A DNA stretch of 32,000 nt from Thermofilum pendens Hrk 5 (GTDB lineage Archaea; Thermoproteota; Thermoprotei; Thermofilales; Thermofilaceae): positions 1,020,001 through 1,052,000 of the forward strand of contig NC_008698.1 of NCBI RefSeq assembly GCF_000015225.1, read 5' to 3'. A program made the translations under genes and the position numbers. Shown here in pieces: positions 6,105 through 26,362 of the stretch; position 1 is the first letter of the stretch; each line of letters begins with the position of its first letter. The notes beneath the pieces are model-generated. The model saw nothing but the letters and a program-made list of their open reading frames with translations, searched no databases and was not told where the DNA came from.

Positions 6105-7382
6105 ATGCAGGGAGAAGACTTCGAAAGGGCTTTCAAGCAGCTCCGCGACAAGGGCGTAAAGTTCTTCGAGGTTGTATTCCAGGATCTCGGAGGAGTTCTA
6201 CGGGGCAGGGTTCTAAAGCCGGAGAAGCCCGACGACGTTGCGCGCGGCTTCAGGATAGACGCGTTCAGCACGGGTTTCAGCGGCGTCGAGGACTCCGACG
6301 CAACGTTGCTACCGGACCTCTCCACGCTGAGAGTATACGAGTCCTCGATAGGTAGGACAGGCTTCCTCATAGGGGACCTCTACCGCGGGGGCAAGCCCAT
6401 GGAGACGTACCCGAGGAACCTGCTGAAGAAGTGGGAGGCGGAGTCCAGGTACAAGGTCCTGCTGGGGGCGGAGCTCGAGTTCTACCTGGCGAGGGACTAC
6501 AAGCCAGTGGACAACGGCGGCTACATGTACGTCTCCCCCTACTCGACCGTGTACCCCGTGATCGCAGAGATAGTCACGAAAGCGGAGGAAGCGGGGCTAG
6601 CGCTGAAAGCCGCGCACCACGAGGTAGGCCCCGGGCAGTACGAGGTGTTACCGACGCCCATGAGCCCCCTAGCCCTCTCCGACGCCATAGTCTTCCTGAA
6701 GAAGCTCATATGGGAGGCTGCGAGCGCGAGAGGCCTCCAGGCCACCTTTATGCCTAAGCCCTTCAACGGTTTGCCGGGCAACGGGCTCCACGTGCACATC
6801 TCGGTGCACGACGGCGACAGGAACGTCCTCTTCGAGGACGGCGAGCTGACCGAGGAGGGCCGCTCCGTGATCGGAGGGCTACTGGCTTACACCGTCCCGC
6901 TTATACTGTTCACGAACCCCACTATTAACTCCTACAAGAGGCTCGTACCCGGCTTCGAAGCCCCGATCTACCTAACCTGGGGGAGGGGGAACAGGTCCAC
7001 GATGATCCGGGTCCCGATGGGGCTTAGAGGCGCCTCGGGCGTCGTGGAGTACAGGCTACCGGACTCCTCCGGGAACGTGTACCTGAAGGCCCTCGCGGTC
7101 CTATACTCGGCGGAGAGGGGGCTGAGGGAGAGGGTAGACCCCGGGCCGGAGTGCAGGGTTAACGCCTTCCTCGCAGACGGGTACCCGCGCATACCGGGGA
7201 CTCTCGGAGAAGCACTCGAGAAATCCCTGGAGTCTATCGGCAAGGCCCCGGAGCTAAGGGACCTGCTATCCAAGGTGGCCGAGCTCGAGAAAGGGGAGTG
7301 GCGCCGCTACTTGGAGGAGGCGGGCTCCCCAGAGGCCTCCGAAGTCACGGAGTGGGAGGTGAAGAGGTACTTCCTGGGCTGA
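6105..7382 (+). CDS. glnA: Glutamine synthetase (GlnA family, 425 aa)
   Basis: GS motifs seen by eye: GAELEFYL, HHEVGPGQYEV, ATFMPKPFNGLPGNGLHVHISV, NSYKRLVPGFEAP, GNRSTMIRVP, VEYRLPDSSGNVYL. Confidence 0.85.
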   Translation: MQGEDFERAFKQLRDKGVKFFEVVFQDLGGVLRGRVLKPEKPDDVARGFRIDAFSTGFSGVEDSDATLLPDLSTLRVYESSIGRTGFLIGDLYRGGKPMETYPRNLLKKWEAESRYKVLLGAELEFYLARDYKPVDNGGYMYVSPYSTVYPVIAEIVTKAEEAGLALKAAHHEVGPGQYEVLPTPMSPLALSDAIVFLKKLIWEAASARGLQATFMPKPFNGLPGNGLHVHISVHDGDRNVLFEDGELTEEGRSVIGGLLAYTVPLILFTNPTINSYKRLVPGFEAPIYLTWGRGNRSTMIRVPMGLRGASGVVEYRLPDSSGNVYLKALAVLYSAERGLRERVDPGPECRVNAFLADGYPRIPGTLGEALEKSLESIGKAPELRDLLSKVAELEKGEWRRYLEEAGSPEASEVTEWEVKRYFLG

Positions 7383-7424
7383 TACGCCCGGCTGGCGCGT
7401 GCGAGGTTTTCTTCGCCCAGCGCG

Positions 7425-8168
7425 CTACAGGGGCTTGAGGGACTCGAAGTACTTTTCTAGGTAGCGTTTGTTCGCCTCGTCGCCTCCCGGCACGTTCGCG
7501 CTCATCCAGACCTCGGGCTTCACCCCCGCCGAGAGGAGTTTCTGCACAGTCCTGGCTACGAGTAGCTGGAGTATGAAGGAGCACACGATCGTAGACACGG
7601 GCGCCACTTTTTGCTCGCACCCCTCTATCTTGAGGATCGCGTCGCCCTCGGGGACCTTGTTGTCTATAACGACGTCGGCTACCTCGTAGAGCCTCTTCCC
7701 GAGGGGGTTGCTCGGAGGCACCTTCCTGCTGTACTCCACGGAGGTTATAGCTATGACCTTGACTCCCCTGTTCCTCGCCTCTACCGCCATCTCGACGGGA
7801 ACAGCGTTCTTCCCGGAGTTGCTCACAATTATCAGCGAGGAGTTCGGCTTTATAGGCGTGGAGTCGAGGAGCGCCTTCGCGTAGCCGGGCAACCTCTCCA
7901 TGTACGTGCTCTTAAGCGCGCCGTTAAAGCCGGAGACGCTTAGGTCGAGGAGGGGGTAGACGCGTACAAGCCCTCCAGCCCTGTAGAACACCTCCATGGC
8001 CATCAGCATGGAGTGCCCGGTCCCGAACACGTAGATGAAGCCGCCGCTCTTCAAGGTATGGGCGAGGACCTCGGAAGCCTTTTCGAGGTTGAGCTTTTCC
8101 TCCCGGAGAATCCTGTCGAATATGCCTACAACGCCCCTGTAAAACTCGGTGTAGACGTCCTGCACCAT
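7425..8168 (-). CDS. SIS-domain protein of the UPF0309 family (putative sugar-phosphate isomerase/binding protein)
   Basis: 247 aa. Matches my recollection of UPF0309 proteins: GTGHS...[34 protein letters not shown] at the C-terminus. Divergent from the HPr gene. Confidence 0.7.
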
Positions 8169-8195
8169 TCGGTACCAAGCCTACATAGTACGGGT

Positions 8196-8207
8196 AAAGA
8201 TATAAAC
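8196..8207. promoter_or_regulatory. Single central AT-rich TATA-like element in the 67-nt divergent SIS/HPr intergenic region
   Basis: AAAGATATAAAC. Its centre (~8203) is essentially the midpoint between ATG 8168 (minus strand) and ATG 8236 (plus strand). Confidence 0.4.
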
Positions 8208-8235
8208 GTTCGCATTGTACCGCGTCCGAGGGCTT

Positions 8236-8508
8236 ATGAAGACCCTGAAGGTGAAGGTTTCCAATAGGAGCGGTCTGCACGCGAGGCCCGCGGCGGTCTT
8301 CGTTCAGACAGCCAGGAAGTTCAAGTCTAGGATAACTGTGAGGAAGCTGGACAAGGCGGCGGACTCCAAGAACATCCTACAGCTGCTCGCGCTGGGAGTG
8401 GACATGGGCGACGAGATAGAAATTGTGGCGGAGGGCCCCGACGAGGAGGAGGCCATAGCCGAGCTGGGAAAACTGCTCACAGAGGTTCTACCGTCCATAG
8501 ACAAGTAA
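8236..8508 (+). CDS. ptsH: PTS phosphocarrier protein HPr
   Basis: 90 aa from ATG 8236. Active-site context SGLHARPAAVFVQTA with His at position 15. Alignable along its whole length to bacterial HPr. Confidence 0.9.
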   Translation: MKTLKVKVSNRSGLHARPAAVFVQTARKFKSRITVRKLDKAADSKNILQLLALGVDMGDEIEIVAEGPDEEEAIAELGKLLTEVLPSIDK

Positions 8509-16218: not shown

Positions 16219-16659
16219 CTAAAAATCTTTTCCGGAGGGACCCTCTTCCTTTTTACCCGTTAACTCCCGGAGCCCTGGACCTACGAATGCCCTTACACCC
16301 TCCATGCCTGCGCTTTTTGCTCCAAGAACGAGCGACTCCAGGTCTTCGTCCTGGGAGGATAGGAGCTGTATAACCATTGCCATGTTGAAGCCTGTAATCA
16401 CCGCTTTCACCTTGGATTCCTGTAGGAGCATGAGTGCCGCCTTGCTTGGTGTCCCCCCGAAGAGGTCCGCTAAGACTATAGTGTCCCCGTCAACCCTGCT
16501 CGCAAGCTTCTCGTAGTAGTTTTCGAAGCTTTCACCTTCCAGGAGCTCGACGCAGTCGGTGACTTCTTTCACGGAGACCCCTAGGATCATCGCGACTGCC
16601 TCCCGCATGGCACAGCCTAGCCCTCCGTGCGAGGCAAACACTACTCTCAAGGCTCTCAC
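16219..16659 (-). CDS. PTS mannose-family IIA component
   Basis: 146 aa with N-terminal VVFASHGGLG (phospho-His context of EIIA-Man). GTG start in a GTGA overlap with the upstream gene's stop. Confidence 0.85.
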   Translation of the reverse strand: MRALRVVFASHGGLGCAMREAVAMILGVSVKEVTDCVELLEGESFENYYEKLASRVDGDTIVLADLFGGTPSKAALMLLQESKVKAVITGFNMAMVIQLLSSQDEDLESLVLGAKSAGMEGVRAFVGPGLRELTGKKEEGPSGKDF

Positions 16660-17540
16660 CTCAAGTGGGACATCGCGACACGCCTATATGTGTGTCTAAC
16701 ACCCCTCACCGCTACCGATAGTTCGAGTATGTTCTCAGGCACGGCGACGCCCATCCTGTACCCGGAGTCTCCTATGTGGTGTATGTCGCAACCGCATGCC
16801 TTCGAGGCCAACCCTATCTTCCTGATTACGGAGCTACTCGAGCCTTCCTGGGAAGTGCCGATCGCGCACATGAGGAGAGCGTCGTACTTGTAGACCAGCC
16901 GCGCCACGGCGCTTACTCTTTCCGGGAGAGACCCGGGGACGGTGTAAGGGGCAGGCACGACTACGCCGTCGGCGCCCGCCGCTAGCACGTCCTCTATCAG
17001 TTTCAGGTCGTAGATGTCCTCGCCGCGAATCCCCCCGCTGTGCATCTTACCCCCGAACACCAGTGCTCTCTCGCCGACTATGCGCTTCGAAGCTTCGACC
17101 CCCTCCCTGATCCTGGACCACGTTACGCCGAGACCGGGGTTACCAGTCACCACTATGAGTCTAGAACCCTGCTCGATGCTCTTTTCGATGCTTCGCGGCG
17201 ACAGCCTCCTCCCCTCGGGTATAACGCCCGGATCCACGGGTTCAAGGTTATTTCCAACGAATCTCTGCAGGAACTCGGAGAGATCCGAGATGCTCGCGTA
17301 CTCCTCCGGCACCCCCTCTACCCTGGGGTTAAAAACGTCGTACATGTTCAACAGGACCATGTCCGCCCCGAAGGACGCCGCTAGCTCTACGTTGGAGACT
17401 CCATCCACGAGTGGAGGAGACTGGACGACGACTTCCGCGCAGATAGTCCTACCCTCGGAGCTTACGACGGAAGACTTGAAGTCTTTAGCTGAAATCTTTG
17501 CAAGCTCCCTACCACTCAGATCTAATACTCTTTTCGCCAT
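16656..17540 (-). CDS. Uncharacterised protein leading the IIA-IIB-oxidoreductase operon; possibly a phosphate-binding (beta/alpha)-barrel enzyme
   Basis: 295 aa from ATG 17540. The longer ORF to 17681 would run through the divergent promoter and the IIC-IID start. Gly-rich FGGKMHSGGIRGE and IGTSQEG resemble phosphate-binding loops. No family recognised with confidence. Confidence 0.6.
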   Translation of the reverse strand: MAKRVLDLSGRELAKISAKDFKSSVVSSEGRTICAEVVVQSPPLVDGVSNVELAASFGADMVLLNMYDVFNPRVEGVPEEYASISDLSEFLQRFVGNNLEPVDPGVIPEGRRLSPRSIEKSIEQGSRLIVVTGNPGLGVTWSRIREGVEASKRIVGERALVFGGKMHSGGIRGEDIYDLKLIEDVLAAGADGVVVPAPYTVPGSLPERVSAVARLVYKYDALLMCAIGTSQEGSSSSVIRKIGLASKACGCDIHHIGDSGYRMGVAVPENILELSVAVRGVRHTYRRVAMSHLR

Positions 17541-17597
17541 TCCGGGTGAACCTGAAACTAAGCCCACCGAATTAAGTTTTCGTCGTAAAGCACAATC

Positions 17598-17628
17598 TTT
17601 ATAAATAGGTTGGTAAAAGCCTATTTGT
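17598..17628. promoter_or_regulatory. TATA box TTTATAAA plus overlapping inverted repeat ATAAATAGG-N10-CCTATTTGT abutting the IIC-IID start codon
   Basis: TATA at 17598-17605 is 24-31 nt upstream of ATG 17629. Inverted-repeat arms are at 17601-17609 and 17620-17628 (7/7 core, 8/9 extended). Confidence 0.45.
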
Positions 17629-19233
17629 ATGGCGACCATAGGCCCACTCGAGGTAGGGCTTCTAGGACTGCTAGCCTTCATCTTCGGACTGGACTACATC
17701 TGGGTAACACCTCTCGGAATCTGGCGCCCCGTGGTCGCGGGGACCCTCACAGGCATTATTCTAGGAGACCCCTTGACAGGGCTACTCGTAGGCTCGCTAC
17801 TAGAGTTCGTGTTCGCTGGGCTATTCACGATAGGAGGCGGGACCGTTCCGGAGGCTGCTAGCGGGACGATAGCCTCCGTGGTTGTCGCCGTTACTACGGG
17901 GTTAAAGCCTGAGGCGGCGGTACCGCTGGCTATACCCGTAGCAGTGCTTACAATGAACTTGGAGATAGTTGTCAGGTCTTTCGACGCGGTGTTCACGCAC
18001 TGGGCTGACAGGGAGATAGAGAGGGGGAACTACGGGGCAATCCCCCTGATAAACATTCTCGGCGCGGTACCATGGGGGCTCAGCAGGGCAATACCTATCT
18101 GGCTATTCGCGGGAGCCTTAGCCATAAACCCACAGGCCGTTAAAGCGGCGATAGATGCCCTCCAAGTGGTTCAAATCGGACCCTTCACGGTGCGCTTCTG
18201 GGACGCGATGGCAGTCGCGGGCGCCGTACTCCCAGCGCTCGGTGCCGCCATTCTAATGAAACTCATGATCTCGCGTAGGAACGTGATGTTCTTTGTACTC
18301 GGCTTCGCTCTCGCAGCCTACCTGAAGCTAAGCCTCCTGGCGATAGCCCTCGTAGCGGGATCCATAATCTTCGCTATCTACTACTTCACCCACCGCGAGG
18401 CATTGGAGGCTGGAGCCGCGGTAACCACAGCGGCACCACCCACCGGCAAGGCAACGACGAAGGACTTCATAAGGTGGTTCGGGGTCTCATGGTTCATACA
18501 GTCGTCCTGGAACTACGAGAGAATGATGGGGACAGGCTTCGCGCACGGTATGCTTGAAATAGAGAAGAAGCTTAGAAAGGACCCGGAGGAGCTGAAGTCC
18601 TGGATGAGGCTACACAACGAGTTCTACAACACCGAGCCCCACCTCCACAACGCCATTTACGGGATGGTGATATCCCTAGAGGAACAGGGGGCGGATCAGG
18701 ATACGATAAGAGGAGTCAAAACAGCGCTTATGGGTCCATTCGCAGGGCTCGGAGACTCGATAATGTGGTTCACGATCCTCCCGATAGCGTTCCTCTTAGG
18801 AGCCTCGCTGGGAGCCCAGGGCAACATACTCGGCCCGGTAATAGCGCTACTGATATGGATACCAGTCTCCTGGGCCGTTAAGTACTACACGCTCGTCTAC
18901 GGGTACAAGTACGGCTTATCCCTGGCGGAAATACTCAAGGGAGAAGTCCTGAAGATATTTAGGGAGGGTATAGCAGCCTTCGCGATGGCAATGGTCGGAG
19001 GAATCGCGGCGACATACGTCAGGGCGACAACCCCGATAGTACTGGCCCAGTACGCTGGTCACGCCATTAAGCTACAACCAGTACTGGACCAGTTGATGCC
19101 ATCCCTGCTCCCACTGCTCTTCACCCTCTACGCCTACTGGCTAATAAAGGTCAAAGGCTACAGCTACGGTAAAGCCGTCGTCATACTCTTCCTCACGGCA
19201 TTCATACTCGCACTGCTAGGAGTACTCGGTTAA
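17629..19233 (+). CDS. PTS mannose-family IIC-IID fusion permease
   Basis: 534 aa. The N-terminal half is a IIC-like polytopic domain. An Ala/Thr/Pro linker spans 18391-18468. The C-terminal half carries IID motifs (FIQSSWNYERMMGTGFAHGM, LHNEFYNTEPHL). Confidence 0.88.
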   Translation: MATIGPLEVGLLGLLAFIFGLDYIWVTPLGIWRPVVAGTLTGIILGDPLTGLLVGSLLEFVFAGLFTIGGGTVPEAASGTIASVVVAVTTGLKPEAAVPLAIPVAVLTMNLEIVVRSFDAVFTHWADREIERGNYGAIPLINILGAVPWGLSRAIPIWLFAGALAINPQAVKAAIDALQVVQIGPFTVRFWDAMAVAGAVLPALGAAILMKLMISRRNVMFFVLGFALAAYLKLSLLAIALVAGSIIFAIYYFTHREALEAGAAVTTAAPPTGKATTKDFIRWFGVSWFIQSSWNYERMMGTGFAHGMLEIEKKLRKDPEELKSWMRLHNEFYNTEPHLHNAIYGMVISLEEQGADQDTIRGVKTALMGPFAGLGDSIMWFTILPIAFLLGASLGAQGNILGPVIALLIWIPVSWAVKYYTLVYGYKYGLSLAEILKGEVLKIFREGIAAFAMAMVGGIAATYVRATTPIVLAQYAGHAIKLQPVLDQLMPSLLPLLFTLYAYWLIKVKGYSYGKAVVILFLTAFILALLGVLG

Positions 19234-19292: not shown

Positions 19293-19979
19293 TCAGCTAT
19301 AGCTCATACGGTTAACTATCTCCTCGATTACTCTTACCACGCAGTCCCCGTACTTCTCTTCGCAAACTATGTCCGCTTTCTCCTTGACTTCTCGCGCGGC
19401 GTTCCCAACGGCCACCTTGACCTTCGACTTTTGGAAGAGCGGTAGGTCCGTGCGGCTATCTCCGATGCTTACTATCATGGCGTCGCTCCACCCAGTCAGC
19501 TTGAGAAGCCTCTCGAGACCCACACCCTTATCGATGCCCCTAGGCATGAACGCATACGTCCGCGAGCCGACCTTCGCGAGGTCGTACCCGAAGGCTCCCA
19601 GCTTCTCCCTAGCAACTCTCTCCGCTACCTGGAGTTCCTCCTCGTCGACGTAGTACAGCACTCTCCCCTCGTTTACAGCCGGTACGCTTTCCCTGAGTAC
19701 TGCCCGGAGCCTATCCCACCCCCACGGCTTGAATATAACCTCCAATGCTTCGGGCAACGCTACGACTGAGCCCACCTCCAGTATGAGCGCGTCTACGAGC
19801 CAGAGCTTACCCACGAACCTCGATATGTCCTCCAGGGGTCGCGCCGTCGCTATAACGAACTTGAAGGGGTACTTTGCTTTGAGCTCTTCGAGCTTCTCCA
19901 AGACGCGGGGCTCCACCTCTCTGTTCTCCTCGGCCAGCGTACCGTCGTAGTCGGACACCACGATCCACTCGCCGCTCAT
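19293..19979 (-). CDS. HAD-superfamily (IIB/Cof-like) phosphatase, probable sugar-phosphate phosphatase
   Basis: Motif I VSDYDGTL and motif IV GDSRTD. Size and cap region fit HAD-IIB. ATG 19979 is adjacent to GTG 19982. Confidence 0.8.
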   Translation of the reverse strand: MSGEWIVVSDYDGTLAEENREVEPRVLEKLEELKAKYPFKFVIATARPLEDISRFVGKLWLVDALILEVGSVVALPEALEVIFKPWGWDRLRAVLRESVPAVNEGRVLYYVDEEELQVAERVAREKLGAFGYDLAKVGSRTYAFMPRGIDKGVGLERLLKLTGWSDAMIVSIGDSRTDLPLFQKSKVKVAVGNAAREVKEKADIVCEEKYGDCVVRVIEEIVNRMSYS

Positions 19980-20002
19980 CACGTATGCTACGCGTGGAAC
20001 AG

Positions 20003-20010
20003 CTATATCT
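20003..20010 (-). promoter_or_regulatory. TATA-like box for the HAD phosphatase gene
   Basis: AGATATAG on the minus strand, about 27 nt upstream of ATG 19979. Confidence 0.35.
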
Positions 20011-20021
20011 GTAGCGCGCGT

Positions 20022-20774
20022 CTACGGCTGGGTGGAGCCTTGGGATGCTAGCTCTAGGATAACCATTGTCTGGATGTCCCGCGTTAACACGGATTTCCAG
20101 GCTTCGCTGAGCGATACCAGGGCCAGGACCCCTACGGGCTCGGCGTCCGCCTCGTCTATGAGGCTTAAGAGAGCCTTCAAGGTTCTACCGGTTCGCAACA
20201 GGTCGTCGACTATCAGAACCCTAGCCCCCCTCTCTAGCAGGCTCGAAGGCACGTACAGGGGGACTACGCTCGGCGGGTCGCGCTGGAACAGGTAGGCAGT
20301 TAGGTACTTCATCGAGGGGCTCTCCCTCTCCCTCCTCGCGACTGCAAGCCTGGCGTCGAGCGCCCACGCGGCGAAGGACGCTAGGGGTATCCCGTTCACG
20401 GCGGCTGTAAGCACCACGTCTACGCCCCTGAAGAACGTGGGGTAGGCGCTCGCAACAGCCGCCGAGAGGACTTCTACGTCGTACGCCAGCTGTGCAACGT
20501 TCACTACGCCGTTCTCGTCCATGGATATCTTCTTCGAGAGGATCTCGCGAAGCAACCCCCTCCTCTTAAGCGCGACGAGGATATGCACAGCCTTTAGGCT
20601 CGGGGGAAGGGAGTGCCCAGCCGCGTACCTGGATAGCTCTGACGGCGATACCTCTACCTTCTCCTCCCTCAAAGCCCTGTAGACCTCCTGTAAGGGTACG
20701 TACGACTTCAGGCTTCTCAGAACCCTCGATGCGAGTATCCTCGGAACCTCCGCCTCGCTCCTAGAGATGGGCAT
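20022..20774 (-). CDS. PurR-like protein: N-terminal winged-helix-like domain + type I phosphoribosyltransferase domain (putative PRPP/nucleotide-responsive regulator)
   Basis: PRTase motif ARVLIVDDLLRTGRTLKAL in the C-terminal half, with a ~90-aa N-terminal domain. ATG 20774 sits 20-29 nt downstream of TTATATATAA. The ORF-track extension to 20897 crosses both promoters. Confidence 0.65.
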   Translation of the reverse strand: MPISRSEAEVPRILASRVLRSLKSYVPLQEVYRALREEKVEVSPSELSRYAAGHSLPPSLKAVHILVALKRRGLLREILSKKISMDENGVVNVAQLAYDVEVLSAAVASAYPTFFRGVDVVLTAAVNGIPLASFAAWALDARLAVARRERESPSMKYLTAYLFQRDPPSVVPLYVPSSLLERGARVLIVDDLLRTGRTLKALLSLIDEADAEPVGVLALVSLSEAWKSVLTRDIQTMVILELASQGSTQP

Positions 20775-20793
20775 GTTTTCACTTATCACAAAG

Positions 20794-20803
20794 TTATATA
20801 TAA
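20794..20803 (-). promoter_or_regulatory. TATA box for the PurR-like gene
   Basis: TTATATATAA, 20-29 nt upstream of ATG 20774. Confidence 0.45.
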
Positions 20804-20829
20804 GCTTTTCTATTAAGCTCAGAGAAAAA

Positions 20830-20839
20830 TTTATAAAAA
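20830..20839 (+). promoter_or_regulatory. TATA box for the ECF transporter operon
   Basis: TTTATAAAAA, 20-29 nt upstream of GTG 20859. Confidence 0.45.
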
Positions 20840-20858
20840 GAGATGCGCAACCGTTCAC

Positions 20859-21647
20859 GTGACGGAGAAAGTAAAAAGGAAAGTAACCTGGATGCACATA
20901 GTGACGTTCGTGTTCGCTACAGCAGTCGCCTACGTGCTCGCAGTGGTCTCAAGCCTGATATTCCCCGTCCTCGGCGCTCCGGGAGTCTCCGCCCTCTACG
21001 TGGCAGCCGCGGTATACGTGCCTCTAGGCGTGTGGATGGGGGCTTGGGGCGCCCTTGCAGGCTACTTTAGCTGCTTCTTCCTGGGGCTATACCCCTCCGG
21101 CTACACAGTGGTGCAGTCGCTCGTATGGTCCTTCGCGGACTTCCTCGAAGCCATAGTGCCAGCCTTCCTTTTCCGGGCCCTGAGGGTAGACCCGGACTTC
21201 ACGGTGAAGAGGGGGTGGGCGGCTAAGCTCTTCCCAGTGCTGATCTCGCTTGGCTCCATCGTGCTGTTGCTGGGGATAGTCGTACAGGTGCTCTGGGGTA
21301 GCCTGGGCGAGCCGTTCACGAGCATCTACGTCTACTCGGTTTACACGGGCCTAGCCCTAGCAGTGCTGGGGCTCCTCGTGGGTCTCGCCGTCGGGAACGC
21401 TAAGACATGGGCTACGTACATAGTCGGGGTAGTCTTAACGTCGTTCATCTCCGGGCTATGGGGAGCCGGGACTCTTACTCTCTTCAACTTCCCACCACCC
21501 CTACCCGCGGCGGCCTTCTGGCCTGTGTTCGTAGGGTGGGTTGTAGGCGACCTCATAGTGCTCTCCGTCCTATCCACGGCGCTGCTAGTAGCGCTCACGC
21601 CGGTCTTCAAGCGTACTGGGCTCTACGTCGAGGGATGGTGGGCGTAA
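20859..21647 (+). CDS. Polytopic membrane protein, candidate substrate-capture (S) component of the downstream ECF transporter
   Basis: 262 aa with ~7 hydrophobic segments. A 3-nt spacer separates it from the ecfT-like gene. Start is ambiguous: GTG 20859 (leaderless) or ATG 20892. No S-component family recognised. Confidence 0.5.
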   Translation: MTEKVKRKVTWMHIVTFVFATAVAYVLAVVSSLIFPVLGAPGVSALYVAAAVYVPLGVWMGAWGALAGYFSCFFLGLYPSGYTVVQSLVWSFADFLEAIVPAFLFRALRVDPDFTVKRGWAAKLFPVLISLGSIVLLLGIVVQVLWGSLGEPFTSIYVYSVYTGLALAVLGLLVGLAVGNAKTWATYIVGVVLTSFISGLWGAGTLTLFNFPPPLPAAAFWPVFVGWVVGDLIVLSVLSTALLVALTPVFKRTGLYVEGWWA

Positions 21648-21650
21648 GGG

Positions 21651-22475
21651 ATGCCGACGATACTCGGAGAGTTGACGGGCTTCGAAGCGGAGAGCAAGCT
21701 GTACATGGGGCTAAGCCCCCTCGTTAAAATAGTGGTTCCTCTTTCTTTCTCCCTCGACGTGCTCCTAGTGAAGGACGTTCCATCGGCTGCGGCGCTGACC
21801 CTGGCTGTCTTTCTAGTTGTTCTGGCGGTAAAGGTTCCCTTGAGGGTCGTGAAGGGCTTCCTAGTCCTCATCGCAAGCCTAAGCGCTTTCATAGTTCTGA
21901 GCTTAACCCTCTTTACGAGCCTCCCGGGCAGGGTTCTCTTCGAGTACACGTTACTCTCAGTGAAGGCCGAGAAGGGGGTCCTCGCCTGGAGAATAGTAGT
22001 CACGGACGAGGCCCTTTCGAGGTCCTTCTTCTTCGTTCTCCGCATACTGGCGATGATACTCACGGCTACACTCTTCGTAGCTACGGTTAGCGACAGGGAC
22101 GTTGTACGAGCCTTGAGGGGGCTCCGCCTCCCGCTGGGCGTCGCGGTCGCGGCTTCCCTCTTCTTCAGGGGGATAAGCATGTTCCTGGACGACTTCAGGG
22201 TGATCAGGGAGGCTATGATGGCGCGCGGCGTGGACTTCGAGAAGACGAGCCTTTACAGGAGGTTTTTCCTCTACGTCAACGCGCTCATCCCGCTGATATC
22301 ACTCATGGTCAGCAGGAGCTACGAAGTCTCGCTGGCCCTCGAGTCGAAGGGATTATCGCCGCTGAGCGGCCCACGCGGCGGCTACGCGTTCGCGCTTACC
22401 CGGGCTGACCGCCTAGTCCTAGGGCTCGCCGCACTGCAGTTCGCATTACTGGCGGCGTGGTGGGTATGCGCGTAG
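21651..22475 (+). CDS. ecfT: ECF transporter transmembrane (T) component, CbiQ/EcfT family
   Basis: 274 aa. The region RALRGLRLPLGVAVAASLFFRGISMFLDDFRVIREAMMARGVD matches the EcfT coupling-helix region (Ala-Arg-Gly type motifs). Confidence 0.8.
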   Translation: MPTILGELTGFEAESKLYMGLSPLVKIVVPLSFSLDVLLVKDVPSAAALTLAVFLVVLAVKVPLRVVKGFLVLIASLSAFIVLSLTLFTSLPGRVLFEYTLLSVKAEKGVLAWRIVVTDEALSRSFFFVLRILAMILTATLFVATVSDRDVVRALRGLRLPLGVAVAASLFFRGISMFLDDFRVIREAMMARGVDFEKTSLYRRFFLYVNALIPLISLMVSRSYEVSLALESKGLSPLSGPRGGYAFALTRADRLVLGLAALQFALLAAWWVCA

Positions 22476-24091
22476 TAGAAATCGAGGGGCTCAAGTGGAG
22501 GTACAGGGGGTCGCCGCACTACGCCTTGAACGGCGTAAACCTCGGCGTCGAGAAGGGCGAGTTCCTCGCGATCACAGGGCTAAGCGGGGCGGGCAAGACG
22601 ACTCTCGTCCTCTCGATCCTCGGCATAATACCCCAGAGGCTCCCCGGCGAGTTCAGCGGCAAGGTGAAGGTCCTCGGCCTCTCCACGCTCTCGACGGACG
22701 TGACCATCATCGCGCAGAGAGTAGGCGTGGTGTTCGAGGACCCGGAGATACAGTTCGTCATGGGCACGGTGGAGGACGAGGTCGCTCTCTCCCTCGAAGC
22801 CATGGGGCTACCGCCGGAGGAAGTCAGGGAGAGGACGCTGTGGGCGCTGGAGCTCGTCGGGCTCGGCGCCGGCTTCCTCCAAAGGAACCCCTCGCAGCTC
22901 TCGGGGGGCGAGAAACAGCGGGTGGCGATAGCGTCCGCGGTCGCGAAGGAGCCGGAGCTACTCATACTCGACGAACCAACCTCGGACCTGGACCCCGCCG
23001 GCAAGGAGGAAGTCGTGTCGGCGATCGAGAGCCTGCGCAGGCAGCTCGACGTCACCATAGTAATGGTTGAACAGGAGCCCGACATCATATACAGGTTCGC
23101 GGACAGAGTGGTCGTGCTGGAGAAGGGCAGGGTCGCGCTCGAAGGCACCCCGCGCGAACTCTACCACAGAATGGAGGAGCTGAGGAGGCTGTCCCTGCGC
23201 CCTCCGGAGCTCTACGAGCTGTGCAGGGCCGCCGGCCTACGGGAACCGTCCCTGGAGGAGCTCGTAAGGCTCGCGGAGAAAGGGTTGCTCGACGGCTCCG
23301 TGTGCGGTGAGCCGCGCGGGCGGCGAGGAGGGCTCGAGGAAGTGGTGAGGGTTCAAGGCGTTACCCACGTCTACCCTGGAGGGATCAGGGCGCTGGACAA
23401 CGTGACGCTCACCCTGTACTCGGGGGAGCTCGTAGCGCTGATGGGCCCCAACGGGAGCGGGAAGACCACGCTGGCAAAGGTGATCGCGGGGCTCGTGCGC
23501 CCGACGAGCGGGAGAGTCCTCGTAAGGGGGCGGGACGTCTCCAGCTACGGCAGGCTGGAGCTCTCGTCGATAGTGGGCTACGTCTACCAGAACCCCCAGC
23601 ACCAGCTCTTCTGCCAGTCTGTCTACGAGGAGGTAGCGTTCGGCCTAAGGTTGCGCGGAGCAGGAGAGGGCGAGGTGAGGAAGGCGGTCGACGAGGCGCT
23701 GAGGCTCTTCAACCTGGAAGGCAAGGCAGAGGAGCACCCGTTCTTCCTGAGCAAGGGAGAGAAGAGGAGGCTCGCGCTTGCGAGTGTATACGCGCTGAAC
23801 CCTTCTGTGCTGATAGTGGACGAGCCCACCACGGGGCAGGACAGAGCGTTCTCGGAGTACCTCTTCTCGACGCTGAGGAGGCTCGCGGAAGAGGGGAAAG
23901 CCGTAGTCGCGATAACGCACAGCGTCGACCTGGCCTCGGCGTACGCCGACAGGGTGGTCGTAATGTGTGGGGGCAGAATCGTAGCTGACGGCGAGCCGGA
24001 CAGCGTGCTGGCAGACCCCGGTGTAGCGGAGAAGGCGAGGATCAAGCGCCCACTGAGGTACGTCCTCTGCAGGCAGAGCCGGCACGGCTAG
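22466..24091 (+). CDS. ECF/ABC transporter ATPase, fused double nucleotide-binding protein (EcfA-EcfA')
   Basis: Two Walker A motifs (GLSGAGKTT, GPNGSGKTT), two signature motifs (LSGGEKQR, LSKGEKRR) and two Walker B motifs (LLILDEPT, VLIVDEPT). ATG 22466 overlaps the ecfT stop by 10 nt. Confidence 0.88.
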   Translation: MRVVEIEGLKWRYRGSPHYALNGVNLGVEKGEFLAITGLSGAGKTTLVLSILGIIPQRLPGEFSGKVKVLGLSTLSTDVTIIAQRVGVVFEDPEIQFVMGTVEDEVALSLEAMGLPPEEVRERTLWALELVGLGAGFLQRNPSQLSGGEKQRVAIASAVAKEPELLILDEPTSDLDPAGKEEVVSAIESLRRQLDVTIVMVEQEPDIIYRFADRVVVLEKGRVALEGTPRELYHRMEELRRLSLRPPELYELCRAAGLREPSLEELVRLAEKGLLDGSVCGEPRGRRGGLEEVVRVQGVTHVYPGGIRALDNVTLTLYSGELVALMGPNGSGKTTLAKVIAGLVRPTSGRVLVRGRDVSSYGRLELSSIVGYVYQNPQHQLFCQSVYEEVAFGLRLRGAGEGEVRKAVDEALRLFNLEGKAEEHPFFLSKGEKRRLALASVYALNPSVLIVDEPTTGQDRAFSEYLFSTLRRLAEEGKAVVAITHSVDLASAYADRVVVMCGGRIVADGEPDSVLADPGVAEKARIKRPLRYVLCRQSRHG

Positions 24092-24627
24092 AGCCTGGCG
24101 AAACTCGCAAGTATTTCTTCGTTGTAGACCTCCGGGTGGAACGCCAGGGCGTAGACTTCCCTATCCTTGACCTTGAAGAACACGTTTTCCCCCTCGCTCA
24201 CGCCGAGCACCTCGACTGCGCTACTCGGCGCCGGTAGCTTTGAGGTAACGAAGTAGGCTTTCAGCTTCCCCGTCTTCGCGAGCCTGTTCTCTCTGACTAC
24301 CTCTACCTCTCTGACCCCGATGACAAGCTTGTCCCTAAGCCCCACTCTGAACACGAGCGAGACTAGCTGGAGACCGGCGCATATGCCGAGCACCGGTCCT
24401 TCGAACTCCTTGACCCAGCTAAACCTATCCACGTACCTCAAGTAGTCGAAGTCCTTCAAAGCAGTCCCGGAGATAACCACCTTGTCGTACCTCTCCACGA
24501 CGCCCGGGCCCACCTCCCTGTAGGATACGACCTCGTAGCTGTCGTACCTCCCGAGGATCCTCGCCAGCGGTTTAACGAACTCGTACTCGCTCAGCCTGTC
24601 CGCGCAAGTGCTCACTATGAGTATCAC
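24088..24627 (-). CDS. Class-I glutamine amidotransferase (stand-alone GATase subunit)
   Basis: 179 aa. Nucleophile elbow LGICAGLQL and His/Glu in AFHPEV. GTG start in a GTGA overlap with the upstream DUF71 gene. Confidence 0.8.
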   Translation of the reverse strand: MILIVSTCADRLSEYEFVKPLARILGRYDSYEVVSYREVGPGVVERYDKVVISGTALKDFDYLRYVDRFSWVKEFEGPVLGICAGLQLVSLVFRVGLRDKLVIGVREVEVVRENRLAKTGKLKAYFVTSKLPAPSSAVEVLGVSEGENVFFKVKDREVYALAFHPEVYNEEILASFARL

Positions 24628-25313
24628 GTCAGACCCCCCTTCTCCTCCAGCCTAGCCCTCTTCACCCTGTAAACCCCCGAGTAGTTCGAGTAAACCTTCT
24701 CCGCTTCCAGCACGACTACCCTCTTCCTGTAGAAGGGGGCGTCGAGAACGGTGGTCTCGAGCTCTCCCCCCTCCCCGGCCATGCTGACACCGTACCTCTC
24801 CTTCAGCTTTCCCAGCTCCTCTACGAGCCCCCAGTCGACCCTCCTCCCGAGGAGGCTCGCGTCGAGGGGGTACGAGAAGACCCCCGAGACTATTACCTCG
24901 AAGCCGTTCTCGAGTAGCTCCCTGTAGACCTCGTACTCGTCCTCCAGCCACAGGGGGTTGAAGCACCAGAGGTCGAGCTCCCTGCAGACTCTCTGCACGC
25001 GGGTAGACTGGTAGGTAGACCTTATCGCCCCCGTCACGACGCCCTCCACGGCGTACCTCTCCACGGCTAATTCGAGCGCTCTCCTCAAGTCCTCCAGCTC
25101 CTCCTTCCTCCCCTCGCTCTCCACCTTCACGAGCGGTAGCCCTATCGCCTCCGCCTGTAGCTCCGTCAAGTGGATGTTGGGGACGTGGAACATGTAGCTC
25201 TCCGGGTTCCTCGACTCAACGGTAACGAGGCACGCCACCTCGTGGTGCCTCATAGCCCTGAACATAGCGAGGTGCGAGTCCTTGCCTCCAGAGAAGAGCA
25301 CGGCGAGCCGCAC
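24624..25313 (-). CDS. DUF71/COG2102 PP-loop ATP pyrophosphatase (MJ0570-like; diphthine-ammonia ligase family)
   Basis: VLFSGGKDS PP-loop, ESYMFHVPN, and GEGGELETTVLDAP, colinear with my recollection of MJ0570-type proteins. GTG 25313 gives 229 aa and has GGTG 10-13 nt upstream. The ORF-track start at 25529 overlaps the upstream gene. Confidence 0.85.
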   Translation of the reverse strand: MRLAVLFSGGKDSHLAMFRAMRHHEVACLVTVESRNPESYMFHVPNIHLTELQAEAIGLPLVKVESEGRKEELEDLRRALELAVERYAVEGVVTGAIRSTYQSTRVQRVCRELDLWCFNPLWLEDEYEVYRELLENGFEVIVSGVFSYPLDASLLGRRVDWGLVEELGKLKERYGVSMAGEGGELETTVLDAPFYRKRVVVLEAEKVYSNYSGVYRVKRARLEEKGGLT

Positions 25314-25333
25314 GGCGCCACACCGTCCAGGAG

Positions 25334-26362
25334 CTACGGGCCGCAGTATTCCTCCGAGGAGGCCCTTTCCAGGCCGTCCACCCTCTTCCTGTAAACCTCT
25401 TCGAGCCAGTCGGGGTACCACCCTCTCTCCGCTAGGATGCTTCTCAGCTCCTCGAGCTTCGCGCGGGACCTCTCTAAGTGGCCCGGTATGCGCCCTCTCT
25501 CCAAGCCCTCGCCGTTGAAGAGCAAGCACTGTCTCTCGCTCCAGTCCCCGGGCTGATCCATTCCGGGGAAGTATTCCCCCACCATGTCCCTCAGCGTCCT
25601 CTCGTCTACAATGCCTCCTAGAACCTTGCCTCCCTTACCGTCGGGACCGTACAGTGGCATGTCGAACCTGTTCGAGGCAAGCGCGGCCACGTCCTGCATT
25701 GCTATGAACTTTGCGTCGAGGCCGACCTTCTCCGCCAGGGATGCCAGCCTCCTCAGCCCCTCCTCCGCGATAAAGCCGTACACGATTATCCTCCTCAGGT
25801 TAATGCCCTTTATCTCGGCGATCTTCAGGGTGAAGTTAACTGTTGCCTCCAGGGTCGCGCCAGTAGCCACGGTATCCGCTACGACGAGCGTATCGCTCCC
25901 CTTCGTAAACGCGCCTACAGAGGAAAAAGTGACGTTTCCCTCGCCGTGTTGCGAGTGGCTGGTAATCTTCACGAAGCCTTCCCGTAGCCTGGCCCCAGCC
26001 TTCGCGAGAGCCTCGTGCAGCATGTAGCCGGGCGACCCGCGCAGGACGTGTAGAAACATGAGCTCCTCGGAGCCCGCGAGCCTCAAGACGAGCTTAGCAG
26101 CCACCTCCGCCAGCGAGAAGGCCTCCGCGGAAAGCCTAGCCCCAACGATCTCCGGCATCGAGGCTATCCTGGCACCCTGAGGCGTGTCCAGGATGTAGAC
26201 ATCAGCCGCCACGTCGAGGTCAACCCTGAAGACTCTCGCCTCCCCGCCCGGAAGAAGGCCCTCCACGGGCTTCGTCAAGTCAAGCCTCGGACCAAACTCC
26301 TCCACGACCTCCCTCGCCGCCTTCTCAGCGTCGAACACGCCACACACCTCCGAGCTAATCAC
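25334..26362 (-). CDS. Type I phosphoribosyltransferase-like protein (UPRT-like core with N- and C-terminal extensions)
   Basis: PRPP-binding-type motif TLVVADTVATGATLEA. UPRT-like blocks are HVLRGSPGYM and IIVYGFIAEEGLRRL. A ~90-aa C-terminal extension is present. Start is uncertain: GTG 26362, 26347 or 26338. Confidence 0.5.
   Translation of the reverse strand: MISSEVCGVFDAEKAAREVVEEFGPRLDLTKPVEGLLPGGEARVFRVDLDVAADVYILDTPQGARIASMPEIVGARLSAEAFSLAEVAAKLVLRLAGSEELMFLHVLRGSPGYMLHEALAKAGARLREGFVKITSHSQHGEGNVTFSSVGAFTKGSDTLVVADTVATGATLEATVNFTLKIAEIKGINLRRIIVYGFIAEEGLRRLASLAEKVGLDAKFIAMQDVAALASNRFDMPLYGPDGKGGKVLGGIVDERTLRDMVGEYFPGMDQPGDWSERQCLLFNGEGLERGRIPGHLERSRAKLEELRSILAERGWYPDWLEEVYRKRVDGLERASSEEYCGP

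Follow-up and report, generated by a model that had tools for sequence, protein, structure and literature searches.

A class-I glutamine amidotransferase subunit coupled to Dph6 points to a putative glutamine-hydrolyzing diphthamide synthetase in Thermofilum pendens and other archaea

Introduction

The last step of diphthamide formation on elongation factor 2 (EF-2) is catalogued as ammonia-dependent (EC 6.3.1.14), and its nitrogen source in vivo has so far been guessed at, with RidA and rare AsnB fusions as the suggestions. Here we analyze a 32,000-nucleotide stretch of the Thermofilum pendens Hrk 5 genome (contig NC_008698.1, positions 1,020,001 to 1,052,000 of the forward strand; hereafter the window, to which coordinates refer unless another locus is named). 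In it, the gene for Dph6, a DUF71/COG2102 PP-loop ATP pyrophosphatase and putative diphthine-amidating subunit, overlaps the gene for a class-I (triad) glutamine amidotransferase (GATase) subunit. We propose that the two proteins form a diphthamide synthetase that would draw its amide nitrogen from glutamine.

The ammonia sources proposed in 2012 for DUF71 proteins were RidA domains and rare fusions to AsnB, a class-II enzyme (PMC3541065). In yeast, Dph6 has RidA-like domains at its C-terminus and lacks a glutaminase (PMC3541065), and AsnB-DUF71 fusions are known from Methanohalophilus, Methanosalsum, and Nanosalinarum (de Crecy-Lagard et al. 2012, PMC3541065). Dph2 and Dph5 were reported in every archaeal genome analyzed except Korarchaeum, and DUF71 is generally not physically clustered with dph2 and dph5 (PMC3541065). 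Our searches of the full-text literature found no class-I glutaminase partner for DUF71 or Dph6, only the RidA and AsnB proposals, which agrees with the remark in the initial annotation of this DNA that a glutamine-hydrolyzing partner was not known to be described.

The closest described system is archaeal guanosine monophosphate (GMP) synthetase. In the Methanocaldococcus jannaschii enzyme, the GATase subunit has no or weak activity alone and is turned on by the substrate-loaded PP-loop subunit; the latter can use NH4+ alone, and the interface is formed by helix alpha1 of the GATase (10.1101/2022.02.27.481963). The same work counts nine types of class-I glutamine amidotransferase (10.1101/2022.02.27.481963). 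Another account describes a patchy distribution of glutamine-using and ammonia-using forms within the NAD synthetase family (PMC3376133).

Results

The two genes lie on the minus strand of the window. The Dph6 gene (24624..25313) starts with GTG and encodes 229 amino acids, and the PP-loop motif SGGKDS can be read from the sequence at residues 8-13 (25275..25292). The GATase gene (24088..24627) also starts with GTG and encodes 179 amino acids. The GTGA tetranucleotide at 24624-24627 holds both the stop codon of the DUF71 gene (TGA) and the start codon of the GATase gene (GTG), and judging from this 4-nt overlap the two genes are translationally coupled. The GATase contains a nucleophile elbow, G-I-C83-A-G (24373..24387, with the Cys83 codon at 24379-24381), and an F-H164-P-E166 motif (24130..24141, with the His164 codon at 24136-24138 and the Glu166 codon at 24130-24132). 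The sequence bears out the initial annotation on these points: its three minus-strand open reading frames (ORFs), the third of which encodes a phosphoribosyltransferase (PRTase)-like protein, lie where it had placed them, the DUF71 stop overlaps the GATase start in GTGA, and the Cys/His/Glu triad of the GATase (Cys83, His164, Glu166) is intact. Over the aligned length, each of the three proteins shows 100% identity to a T. pendens entry.

The DUF71 protein of T. pendens scores 268.7 bits on the TIGR03679 model (Dph6_archaeal; cut-off 197.3), covering model positions 1-218 of 218, and 249.9 bits on PF01902, and its proposed membership of the diphthine-amidating family is thereby upheld. On the B12-type DUF71 models NF052346 and NF052347 it scores 49.2 and 43.0 bits, against cut-offs of 250, so the choice between a Dph6 clade and a B12-associated clade, which had been named as a point to check, comes out in favor of Dph6. 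The protein aligns full-length to PH1257 (2d13, 201 bits) and PF0828 (3rjz, 187 bits). Nine residues of PF0828 have been proposed for EF-2 contact or catalysis, S44, Y45, E78, Y103, Q104, A149, E183, E186, and E188 (PMC3541065); eight of them are identical in T. pendens Dph6, and A149 is replaced by Ser. The C-terminal GEGGE-ET motif is present, and SGGKDS is invariant across both Dph6 alignments (A2 and A3). The count of DUF71 paralogs is one for T. pendens Hrk5 (YP_920509, Table S1 of PMC3541065) and likewise one for Methanoculleus marisnigri (PMC3541065). By these model scores, the T. pendens DUF71 is an archaeal Dph6 equivalog and not a B12-type protein.

We next turn to the GATase. It matches PF00117 with 29.7 bits (cut-off 22.8) and is remote from all named equivalogs, including the GuaAA models, with 34.6 bits on NF001975 (cut-off 198) and 30.0 bits on TIGR00888 (cut-off 172). 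Six further members of its family score 37-97 bits on NF001975, all far under 198, and the sequence alignment to GuaAA covers the C-terminal half only. The AlphaFold2 model of the T. pendens GATase has a mean predicted local distance difference test score (pLDDT) of 96.3 and a predicted template-modeling score (pTM) of 0.92. In a Foldseek search with this model, Ta0944m (2a9v) is a top match with a template-modeling (TM) score of 0.84, and the M. jannaschii and Pyrococcus horikoshii GuaAA and the TrpG chains follow with TM-scores of 0.77-0.83 at probability 1.00. The nearest solved folds, archaeal GuaAA subunits and TrpG, thus lie at TM-scores of 0.77-0.84 and share 18-22% identity with the query; a gamma-glutamyl peptidase is also among the fold matches.

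A search in 1.84 billion representatives returned 249 clusters (50% identity) of this GATase at E<=1e-30. An alignment of 37 sequences (A1) reveals a sharply defined family of ~170-190 amino acids with the GICAG...FHPE triad intact and with motifs of its own in the N-terminal half, namely a Cys at position 8, LSE-EFV-P, and GTALKDF-Y. Residue conservation was counted by hmmalign in 265 members. The triad is kept in 98-100% of them (Cys in 259/265, His in 261/263, Glu in 263/263), and the glutamine-binding Gln87 in 238/265 (90%), which is the pattern expected of an active glutaminase. From its sequence, the GATase looks catalytically competent. E16, F17, and P20 are near-invariant (257-261 of 265 members) and lie on or beside the predicted first helices of the model (residues 11-26), which makes them candidate docking residues. 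In the source records, the partner is annotated as a "glutamine amidotransferase-related protein", a GMP synthase, a GMP synthase-like GATase, or a "hypothetical protein".

Two further observations concern the N-terminal half of the GATase. E16, F17, P20, and D59, which are not triad residues, match the triad approximately in conservation (with residue 8, they fall within window ~24449-24606). Cys8 is invariant in the 76 unfused pairs from GTDB and present in 223/265 members overall, and it is a Cys in three of the seven natural fusions described below. Cys8, E16, F17, P20, and D59 may outline a docking surface under less constraint once the two domains are tethered.

Conservation of the gene pair was examined from both sides. 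In a scan anchored on the GATase, with one genome per GTDB species, we collected 80 loci (L001-L080). Dph6 lies upstream on the same strand in 79 of these 80 loci. The distance from the Dph6 stop to the GATase start is exactly -4 nt in 65 of the 79 and falls between -13 and +14 nt in 73; in the remaining six, Dph6 is 0.4-3 kb away. Because 79 of 80 loci are linked and 65 have the identical 4-nt overlap, the DUF71-GATase adjacency is far beyond chance, and its conservation in other archaea, which the initial annotation had put forward for checking, is borne out. The records of these loci are labeled DPANN (Nano-, Woese-, Pace-, and Aenigmatarchaeota), Bathyarchaeia, Nitrososphaeria, Archaeoglobaceae, and Thermoprotei, together with metagenome-assembled genomes (MAGs) labeled Methanosarcinales.

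All-against-all clustering of the neighboring ORFs in the GATase-anchored loci found no third conserved gene beside the pair. The next commonest neighbors, SRP54, lysyl-tRNA synthetase, and a RimK-like protein, reflect lineage-specific synteny. Among the neighbor clusters of the GATase loci there is no conserved link to a dph2, dph5, or EF-2 gene and no GuaAB-like cluster, and no B12 genes occur among the conserved neighbors. In five loci, a glutamine synthetase gene lies ~1 kb downstream of the pair (in L006, at 6908-8383, with PF00120 and PF03951); this places the glutamine producer beside a putative glutamine consumer and may reflect lineage synteny only. A gene of the NFACT family, which belongs to ribosome quality control, is directly upstream of Dph6 in one locus (L087) and near a GATase that has no Dph6 beside it in another (L047), and these neighbors may indicate a translation-related neighborhood. 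Two MAGs labeled bacterial (L011 and L054, Candidatus Binatia and Candidatus Acidiferrales) carry an archaeal Dph6-GATase pair, and their contigs are probably mis-binned archaeal DNA.

From the side of Dph6, look-ups of individual genes recovered the coupled pair with its 4-nt overlap in the cultured Methanoculleus sp. 7T, in a Methanoculleus bourgensis assembly, and in a Theionarchaea MAG. In a metagenome scan of the 80 closest Dph6 relatives, 76 loci were informative and four uninformative. The GATase is directly downstream of Dph6 in 51 of the 76 informative loci, and 36 of the 50 linked loci that are not fused show the 4-nt overlap.

The two proteins are also found as one. Seven of the best 150 GATase-family representatives are single polypeptides of 411-470 amino acids, in which an N-terminal PF01902 is joined by a low-complexity linker (~15-70 amino acids) to a C-terminal PF00117. 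One of them comes from a Methanothrix MAG (MFZ2471518.1) and is annotated just as diphthine--ammonia ligase. An eighth fusion (L157) was confirmed in the DNA as an uninterrupted ORF. The linkers indicate that the fusions are not frameshift artefacts of the 4-nt overlap, and in the two fusions tested the Dph6 part still scores above the TIGR03679 cut-off. A fold search of the PDB found no solved chain that spans both domains. In addition, the pairwise distance matrices of Dph6 and GATase are correlated across 76 pairs (r = 0.83, Mantel p = 0.001), indicating that the two proteins are inherited and transferred together. The coupling in 79 of 80 loci and the fusions support the initial suggestion that DUF71 and the GATase are two subunits of one glutamine-dependent amidotransferase.

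The third gene of the putative operon encodes the PRTase-like protein (a uracil phosphoribosyltransferase (UPRT)-like hypothetical protein; 25334..26362, minus strand) and is given here as context only. It has 342 amino acids when counted from the first GTG, and 334-337 in public gene calls. As first annotated, it lies on the same strand 20 nt upstream of the DUF71 gene, and this gap between its stop codon and the DUF71 GTG start contains a Shine-Dalgarno-like GGTG. The protein scores 16.3 bits on PF00156, under the cut-off of 26.3, and 17-18 bits on the upp models, whose cut-offs are 114-208; its best PDB match is the UPRT 2e55, a weak one (E = 0.004). A phosphoribosyl pyrophosphate loop-like segment, VVADTVATGATL, is visible in it, and a few of its homologues match PF14681. 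Its family consists of 61 proteins, mostly annotated as hypothetical, from Thermofilaceae and other Thermoprotei only. A tblastn search with this protein found no relative in L001-L080, and none was found among the 160 related loci or in the look-up loci that carry the pair.

In Infirmifilum lucidum (L085), the gene order is GH1, MFS, DUF2139, PRTase-like, a convergent energy-coupling factor (ECF) ATPase, EcfT, a 264-amino-acid protein, a PRTase, and an HAD hydrolase. This order matches that of the T. pendens window except for the DUF2139 gene, and the PRTase-like gene runs straight into the ECF ATPase gene, without Dph6-GATase between them. The synteny without the pair indicates that the pair was inserted at this place in the T. 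pendens lineage. The three-gene unit described in the initial annotation thus gives way to a two-gene one, the PRTase-like gene having no relative in the 160 related loci and standing in Infirmifilum without the pair. The best named match of T. pendens Dph6 is from Methanoculleus (62% identity), and the nearest relative of the GATase outside T. pendens shares only 50% identity with it. The T. pendens DUF71 groups with Methanomicrobia and not with Thermoproteales (PMC3541065), and an insertion of the pair agrees with this Methanomicrobia-like affinity. We propose that the pair came to T. pendens as a unit by horizontal transfer and settled between the PRTase-like gene, which is lineage-specific, and an ECF transporter; it supplies the only Dph6 of the genome. 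Given the 20-nt gap and the Shine-Dalgarno-like GGTG, transcription in T. pendens probably continues from the PRTase-like gene into the pair, and we regard such co-transcription as an accident of insertion and not as a pathway. The pair then offers a clean case in which a two-gene cassette has horizontally displaced a gene related to translation.

On the other side of the pair, a fused ECF ATPase gene (22457..24091, plus strand) converges on the GATase gene. The stop codons of the two genes overlap by 4 nt (24088-24091), which leaves no intergenic terminator region. The ATPase matches generic ECF models; the T component is CbiQ-type by Pfam and scores 46 bits on the CbiQ equivalog, whose cut-off is 112. 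The initial annotation was right that the transporter converges on the operon, but a functional link does not hold up, since the adjacency is not conserved and Infirmifilum has the transporter without the pair. The block that is syntenic between Thermofilum and Infirmifilum (window 19293-26362) comprises genes for an HAD hydrolase, a PRTase (PF00156, 52 bits), a 262-amino-acid protein, EcfT, and a fused EcfA1A2 ATPase, and the convergent UPRT-like gene. The 262-amino-acid protein has no Pfam match and is possibly an ECF S component, and the block may serve these auxotrophic archaea in the salvage of a base, nucleoside, or vitamin. Further along the window, a fused EIIC-EIID gene of the phosphotransferase system (mannose/sorbose family) lies at 17629-19233 and a DUF7916 gene at 16656-17681. 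Components of the phosphotransferase system are unusual in archaea.

Discussion

We conclude that the two genes downstream of the PRTase-like gene probably encode a heteromeric, glutamine-hydrolyzing diphthamide synthetase, a reading to which we give a probability of about 70% on the strength of sequence and gene-order comparisons. In this synthetase, Dph6 would use ATP to adenylate the carboxylate of diphthine on EF-2, while the triad GATase would dock on Dph6 and hydrolyze glutamine through Cys83, His164, and Glu166. The released ammonia would pass to the adenylated intermediate, giving diphthamide, AMP, pyrophosphate, and glutamate. Complex formation, ammonia channeling, glutamine dependence, and the EF-2 substrate are each points that we infer. 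The initial annotation had listed a glutamine-dependent diphthamide synthetase as one of three alternatives, and it is this one that the comparisons favor. The conserved pairing suggests that glutamine, and not free ammonia, supplies the final amide nitrogen in archaea with the pair. The AlphaFold2 model of one fusion (P0400; pLDDT 86, pTM 0.87, disorder in the linker only) gives a hint that the two domains pack in a defined way, although it was built on a thin alignment of seven sequences, the first of several points that weigh against the proposal.

The remaining ones concern distribution, activity, and catalysis. No experiment has demonstrated Dph6 activity for an archaeal protein (PMC8305020). 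At one GATase locus (L047, 1430-2687), Dph6 is absent from the 2 kb upstream; in its place, a gene for a PIN_9 domain protein lies 7 nt upstream of the GATase. On the Dph6 side, 25 of the 76 informative metagenome loci lack the partner, and two looked-up uncoupled Dph6 genes are 65-69% identical to coupled ones, the uncoupled P0238 being 69% identical to coupled Bathyarchaeia proteins. We found no Dph6 sequence signature that parts coupled from uncoupled proteins, only four weakly discriminating columns. Such close relatives of Dph6 occur without the partner, and from these comparisons the GATase appears to be accessory; a Dph6 without it presumably uses free ammonia. As to catalysis, GISSG replaces GICAG (Cys to Ser) in the partners from Methanoculleus sp. 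7T, M. bourgensis, and a contig from a fermentation metagenome (L082), and in the same three independent sequences Gln87 is changed to Arg or Leu; they keep the His, the Glu, and the 4-nt coupling (L081 4678-5241, L082 4678-5241, and L090 3178-3741). In five other members of the family, the nucleophile is replaced by Gly. These Ser and Gly members mean that glutamine hydrolysis cannot be the role of the partner in every lineage, and a small minority of partners would have another nucleophile or a non-catalytic role.

The same variants bear on an alternative in which the GATase-like subunit, a pseudo-glutaminase or nearly so, serves Dph6 mainly in structure, allostery, or substrate docking, and Dph6 still uses free ammonia. 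The Methanoculleus partners, with Ser for the nucleophile and Arg or Leu for Gln87, have nonetheless kept the coupling, Gly replaces the nucleophile in five members, and E16, F17, P20, and D59, outside the triad, are about as conserved as the triad itself. However, the triad and Gln87 are kept in nearly all or most of the 265 members (98-100% and 90%), the T. pendens triad is canonical, and a Ser-His-Glu triad could still hydrolyze glutamine, and we hold a non-catalytic role in general to be unlikely. It is highly improbable that the triad enzyme acts in the opposite direction, as an amidase that turns diphthamide back into diphthine, or that it processes a gamma-glutamyl compound, and so regulates the modification. 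Class-I GATase folds do include peptidases and amidases, such as the gamma-glutamyl peptidase among our fold matches, but a synthetase coupled or fused to its own reversing enzyme is without known parallel, the nearest relatives are genuine amidotransferase subunits, and Gln87 is conserved.

Other readings would detach the pair from EF-2. According to the initial annotation, the PRTase-like protein, DUF71, and the GATase would phosphoribosylate, adenylate, and amidate in turn as a salvage module, perhaps fed by the ECF transporter, with a metabolite and not EF-2 as the substrate. T. pendens is dependent on salvage, the 20-nt same-strand gap has no obvious internal promoter, and the transporter is convergent. 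The PRTase-like gene is, however, no part of the conserved unit: it has a relative in 0 of the 80 GATase loci (and in none of the 160 loci overall), there is no third conserved gene, and Infirmifilum lucidum has the arrangement without the pair. With the DUF71 the only one in the genome and scoring as a Dph6 equivalog, we consider the module very unlikely and have dropped it. That the GATase is a GuaAA paralog for GMP synthesis or another known amidotransferase with an incidental neighbor, or part of a non-orthologous enzyme converting xanthosine monophosphate (XMP) to GMP, is scarcely credible, even though, of the solved structures, archaeal GuaAA subunits are nearest to it in sequence and fold. 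It scores 34.6 bits where 198 are needed (37-97 in other members), aligns in its C-terminal half only, and is coupled or fused to DUF71. The HMM cut-offs and the identity of the partner (DUF71 in 79 of 80 loci and in eight fusions) led us to reject GuaAA identity, and with it the XMP-to-GMP alternative of the initial annotation. That annotation had also named what would count against a functional pair, a GATase grouping with bona fide GuaAA and adjacent to DUF71 in this genome only; with 34.6 against 198 bits on NF001975 and 79 of 80 loci linked, neither is the case. Its corrinoid alternative, an amidation or B12 salvage role of the kind proposed for a second DUF71 subfamily, fares no better. 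The adjoining transporter has a CbiQ-type T component by Pfam, but this component reaches 46 of 112 bits on the CbiQ equivalog, the transporter adjacency is not conserved, and the DUF71 itself reaches only 43-49 of 250 bits on NF052346 and NF052347. We rejected the B12-type DUF71 families (PAB0415 and TTX_0299) by family membership, no btuCDF/cbiB-type neighbors being conserved, and the chance that the pair serves B12 is minimal.

If the pair is a glutamine-hydrolyzing diphthamide synthetase, several consequences follow. Its ammonia path would end at a protein-protein interface and not in a small-molecule pocket, it would deserve an EC entry of its own as a diphthine-glutamine ligase, and the Cys-to-Ser form of Methanoculleus would be either a serine-nucleophile variant or a regulatory pseudo-glutaminase. 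A glutaminase beside 51 of the 76 informative Dph6 genes, the closest metagenome relatives, gives a concrete and testable answer to the question of the nitrogen source. The GATase family is well delimited, and its "glutamine amidotransferase-related" and GMP synthase-type labels could be corrected, as could the label "diphthine--ammonia ligase" on the fusions. As a compact system, the pair also lends itself to the study of ammonia delivery to a protein substrate, with T. pendens and Methanoculleus as cultured sources and a natural fusion in the Methanothrix MAG.

Compared with known systems, the pair most resembles the archaeal GMP synthetase of M. jannaschii and P. horikoshii (GuaAA and GuaAB), in which a separate class-I glutaminase of ~180 amino acids serves an adenylating PP-loop enzyme, and which is likewise split in some lineages and fused into a single chain in others. 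GuaAA is the closest relative of the Dph6-associated GATase in sequence and fold. Unlike GMP synthetase, however, the PP-loop partner is PF01902/DUF71 and not the GuaA ATP pyrophosphatase, the putative acceptor is a modified histidine on a protein and not XMP, and the fusions have the reverse domain order, with the synthetase N-terminal. The GATase also differs from GuaAA in its own N-terminal-half motifs and misses the equivalog models by a wide margin. With the known Dph6 enzymes of EC 6.3.1.14 (yeast YLR143W, PF0828, and PH1257), the T. pendens protein shares the DUF71 domain, the PP-loop, and GEGGE-ET. Those enzymes are described as ammonia-dependent, and yeast Dph6 was reportedly assayed with ammonium, whereas T. 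pendens encodes a glutaminase subunit that appears translationally coupled to Dph6. The AsnB-DUF71 fusions are a precedent, by prediction only, for glutamine nitrogen in some Dph6 proteins, but they differ in using an N-terminal nucleophile-type class-II glutaminase, in having an extra PP-loop domain, and in being confined to few genomes; the class-I partner, with its far wider distribution, is a solution in its own right. In the lipid II amidotransferase MurT/GatD, GatD, a small glutaminase of class I, works for an ATP-dependent ligase whose substrate is large, and the patchiness of glutamine use in the NAD synthetase family resembles the pattern of coupled and uncoupled Dph6; both are analogies of logic, with unrelated synthetase families and substrates. 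We know of no earlier class-I glutamine amidotransferase with a residue of a folded protein as acceptor. Taken together, the sequence comparisons point to known domain types in a new and widespread combination with a protein-bound acceptor, and we think it rather likely that the pair represents a class-I glutamine amidotransferase type beyond the nine already counted, with a residue of EF-2 as its acceptor.

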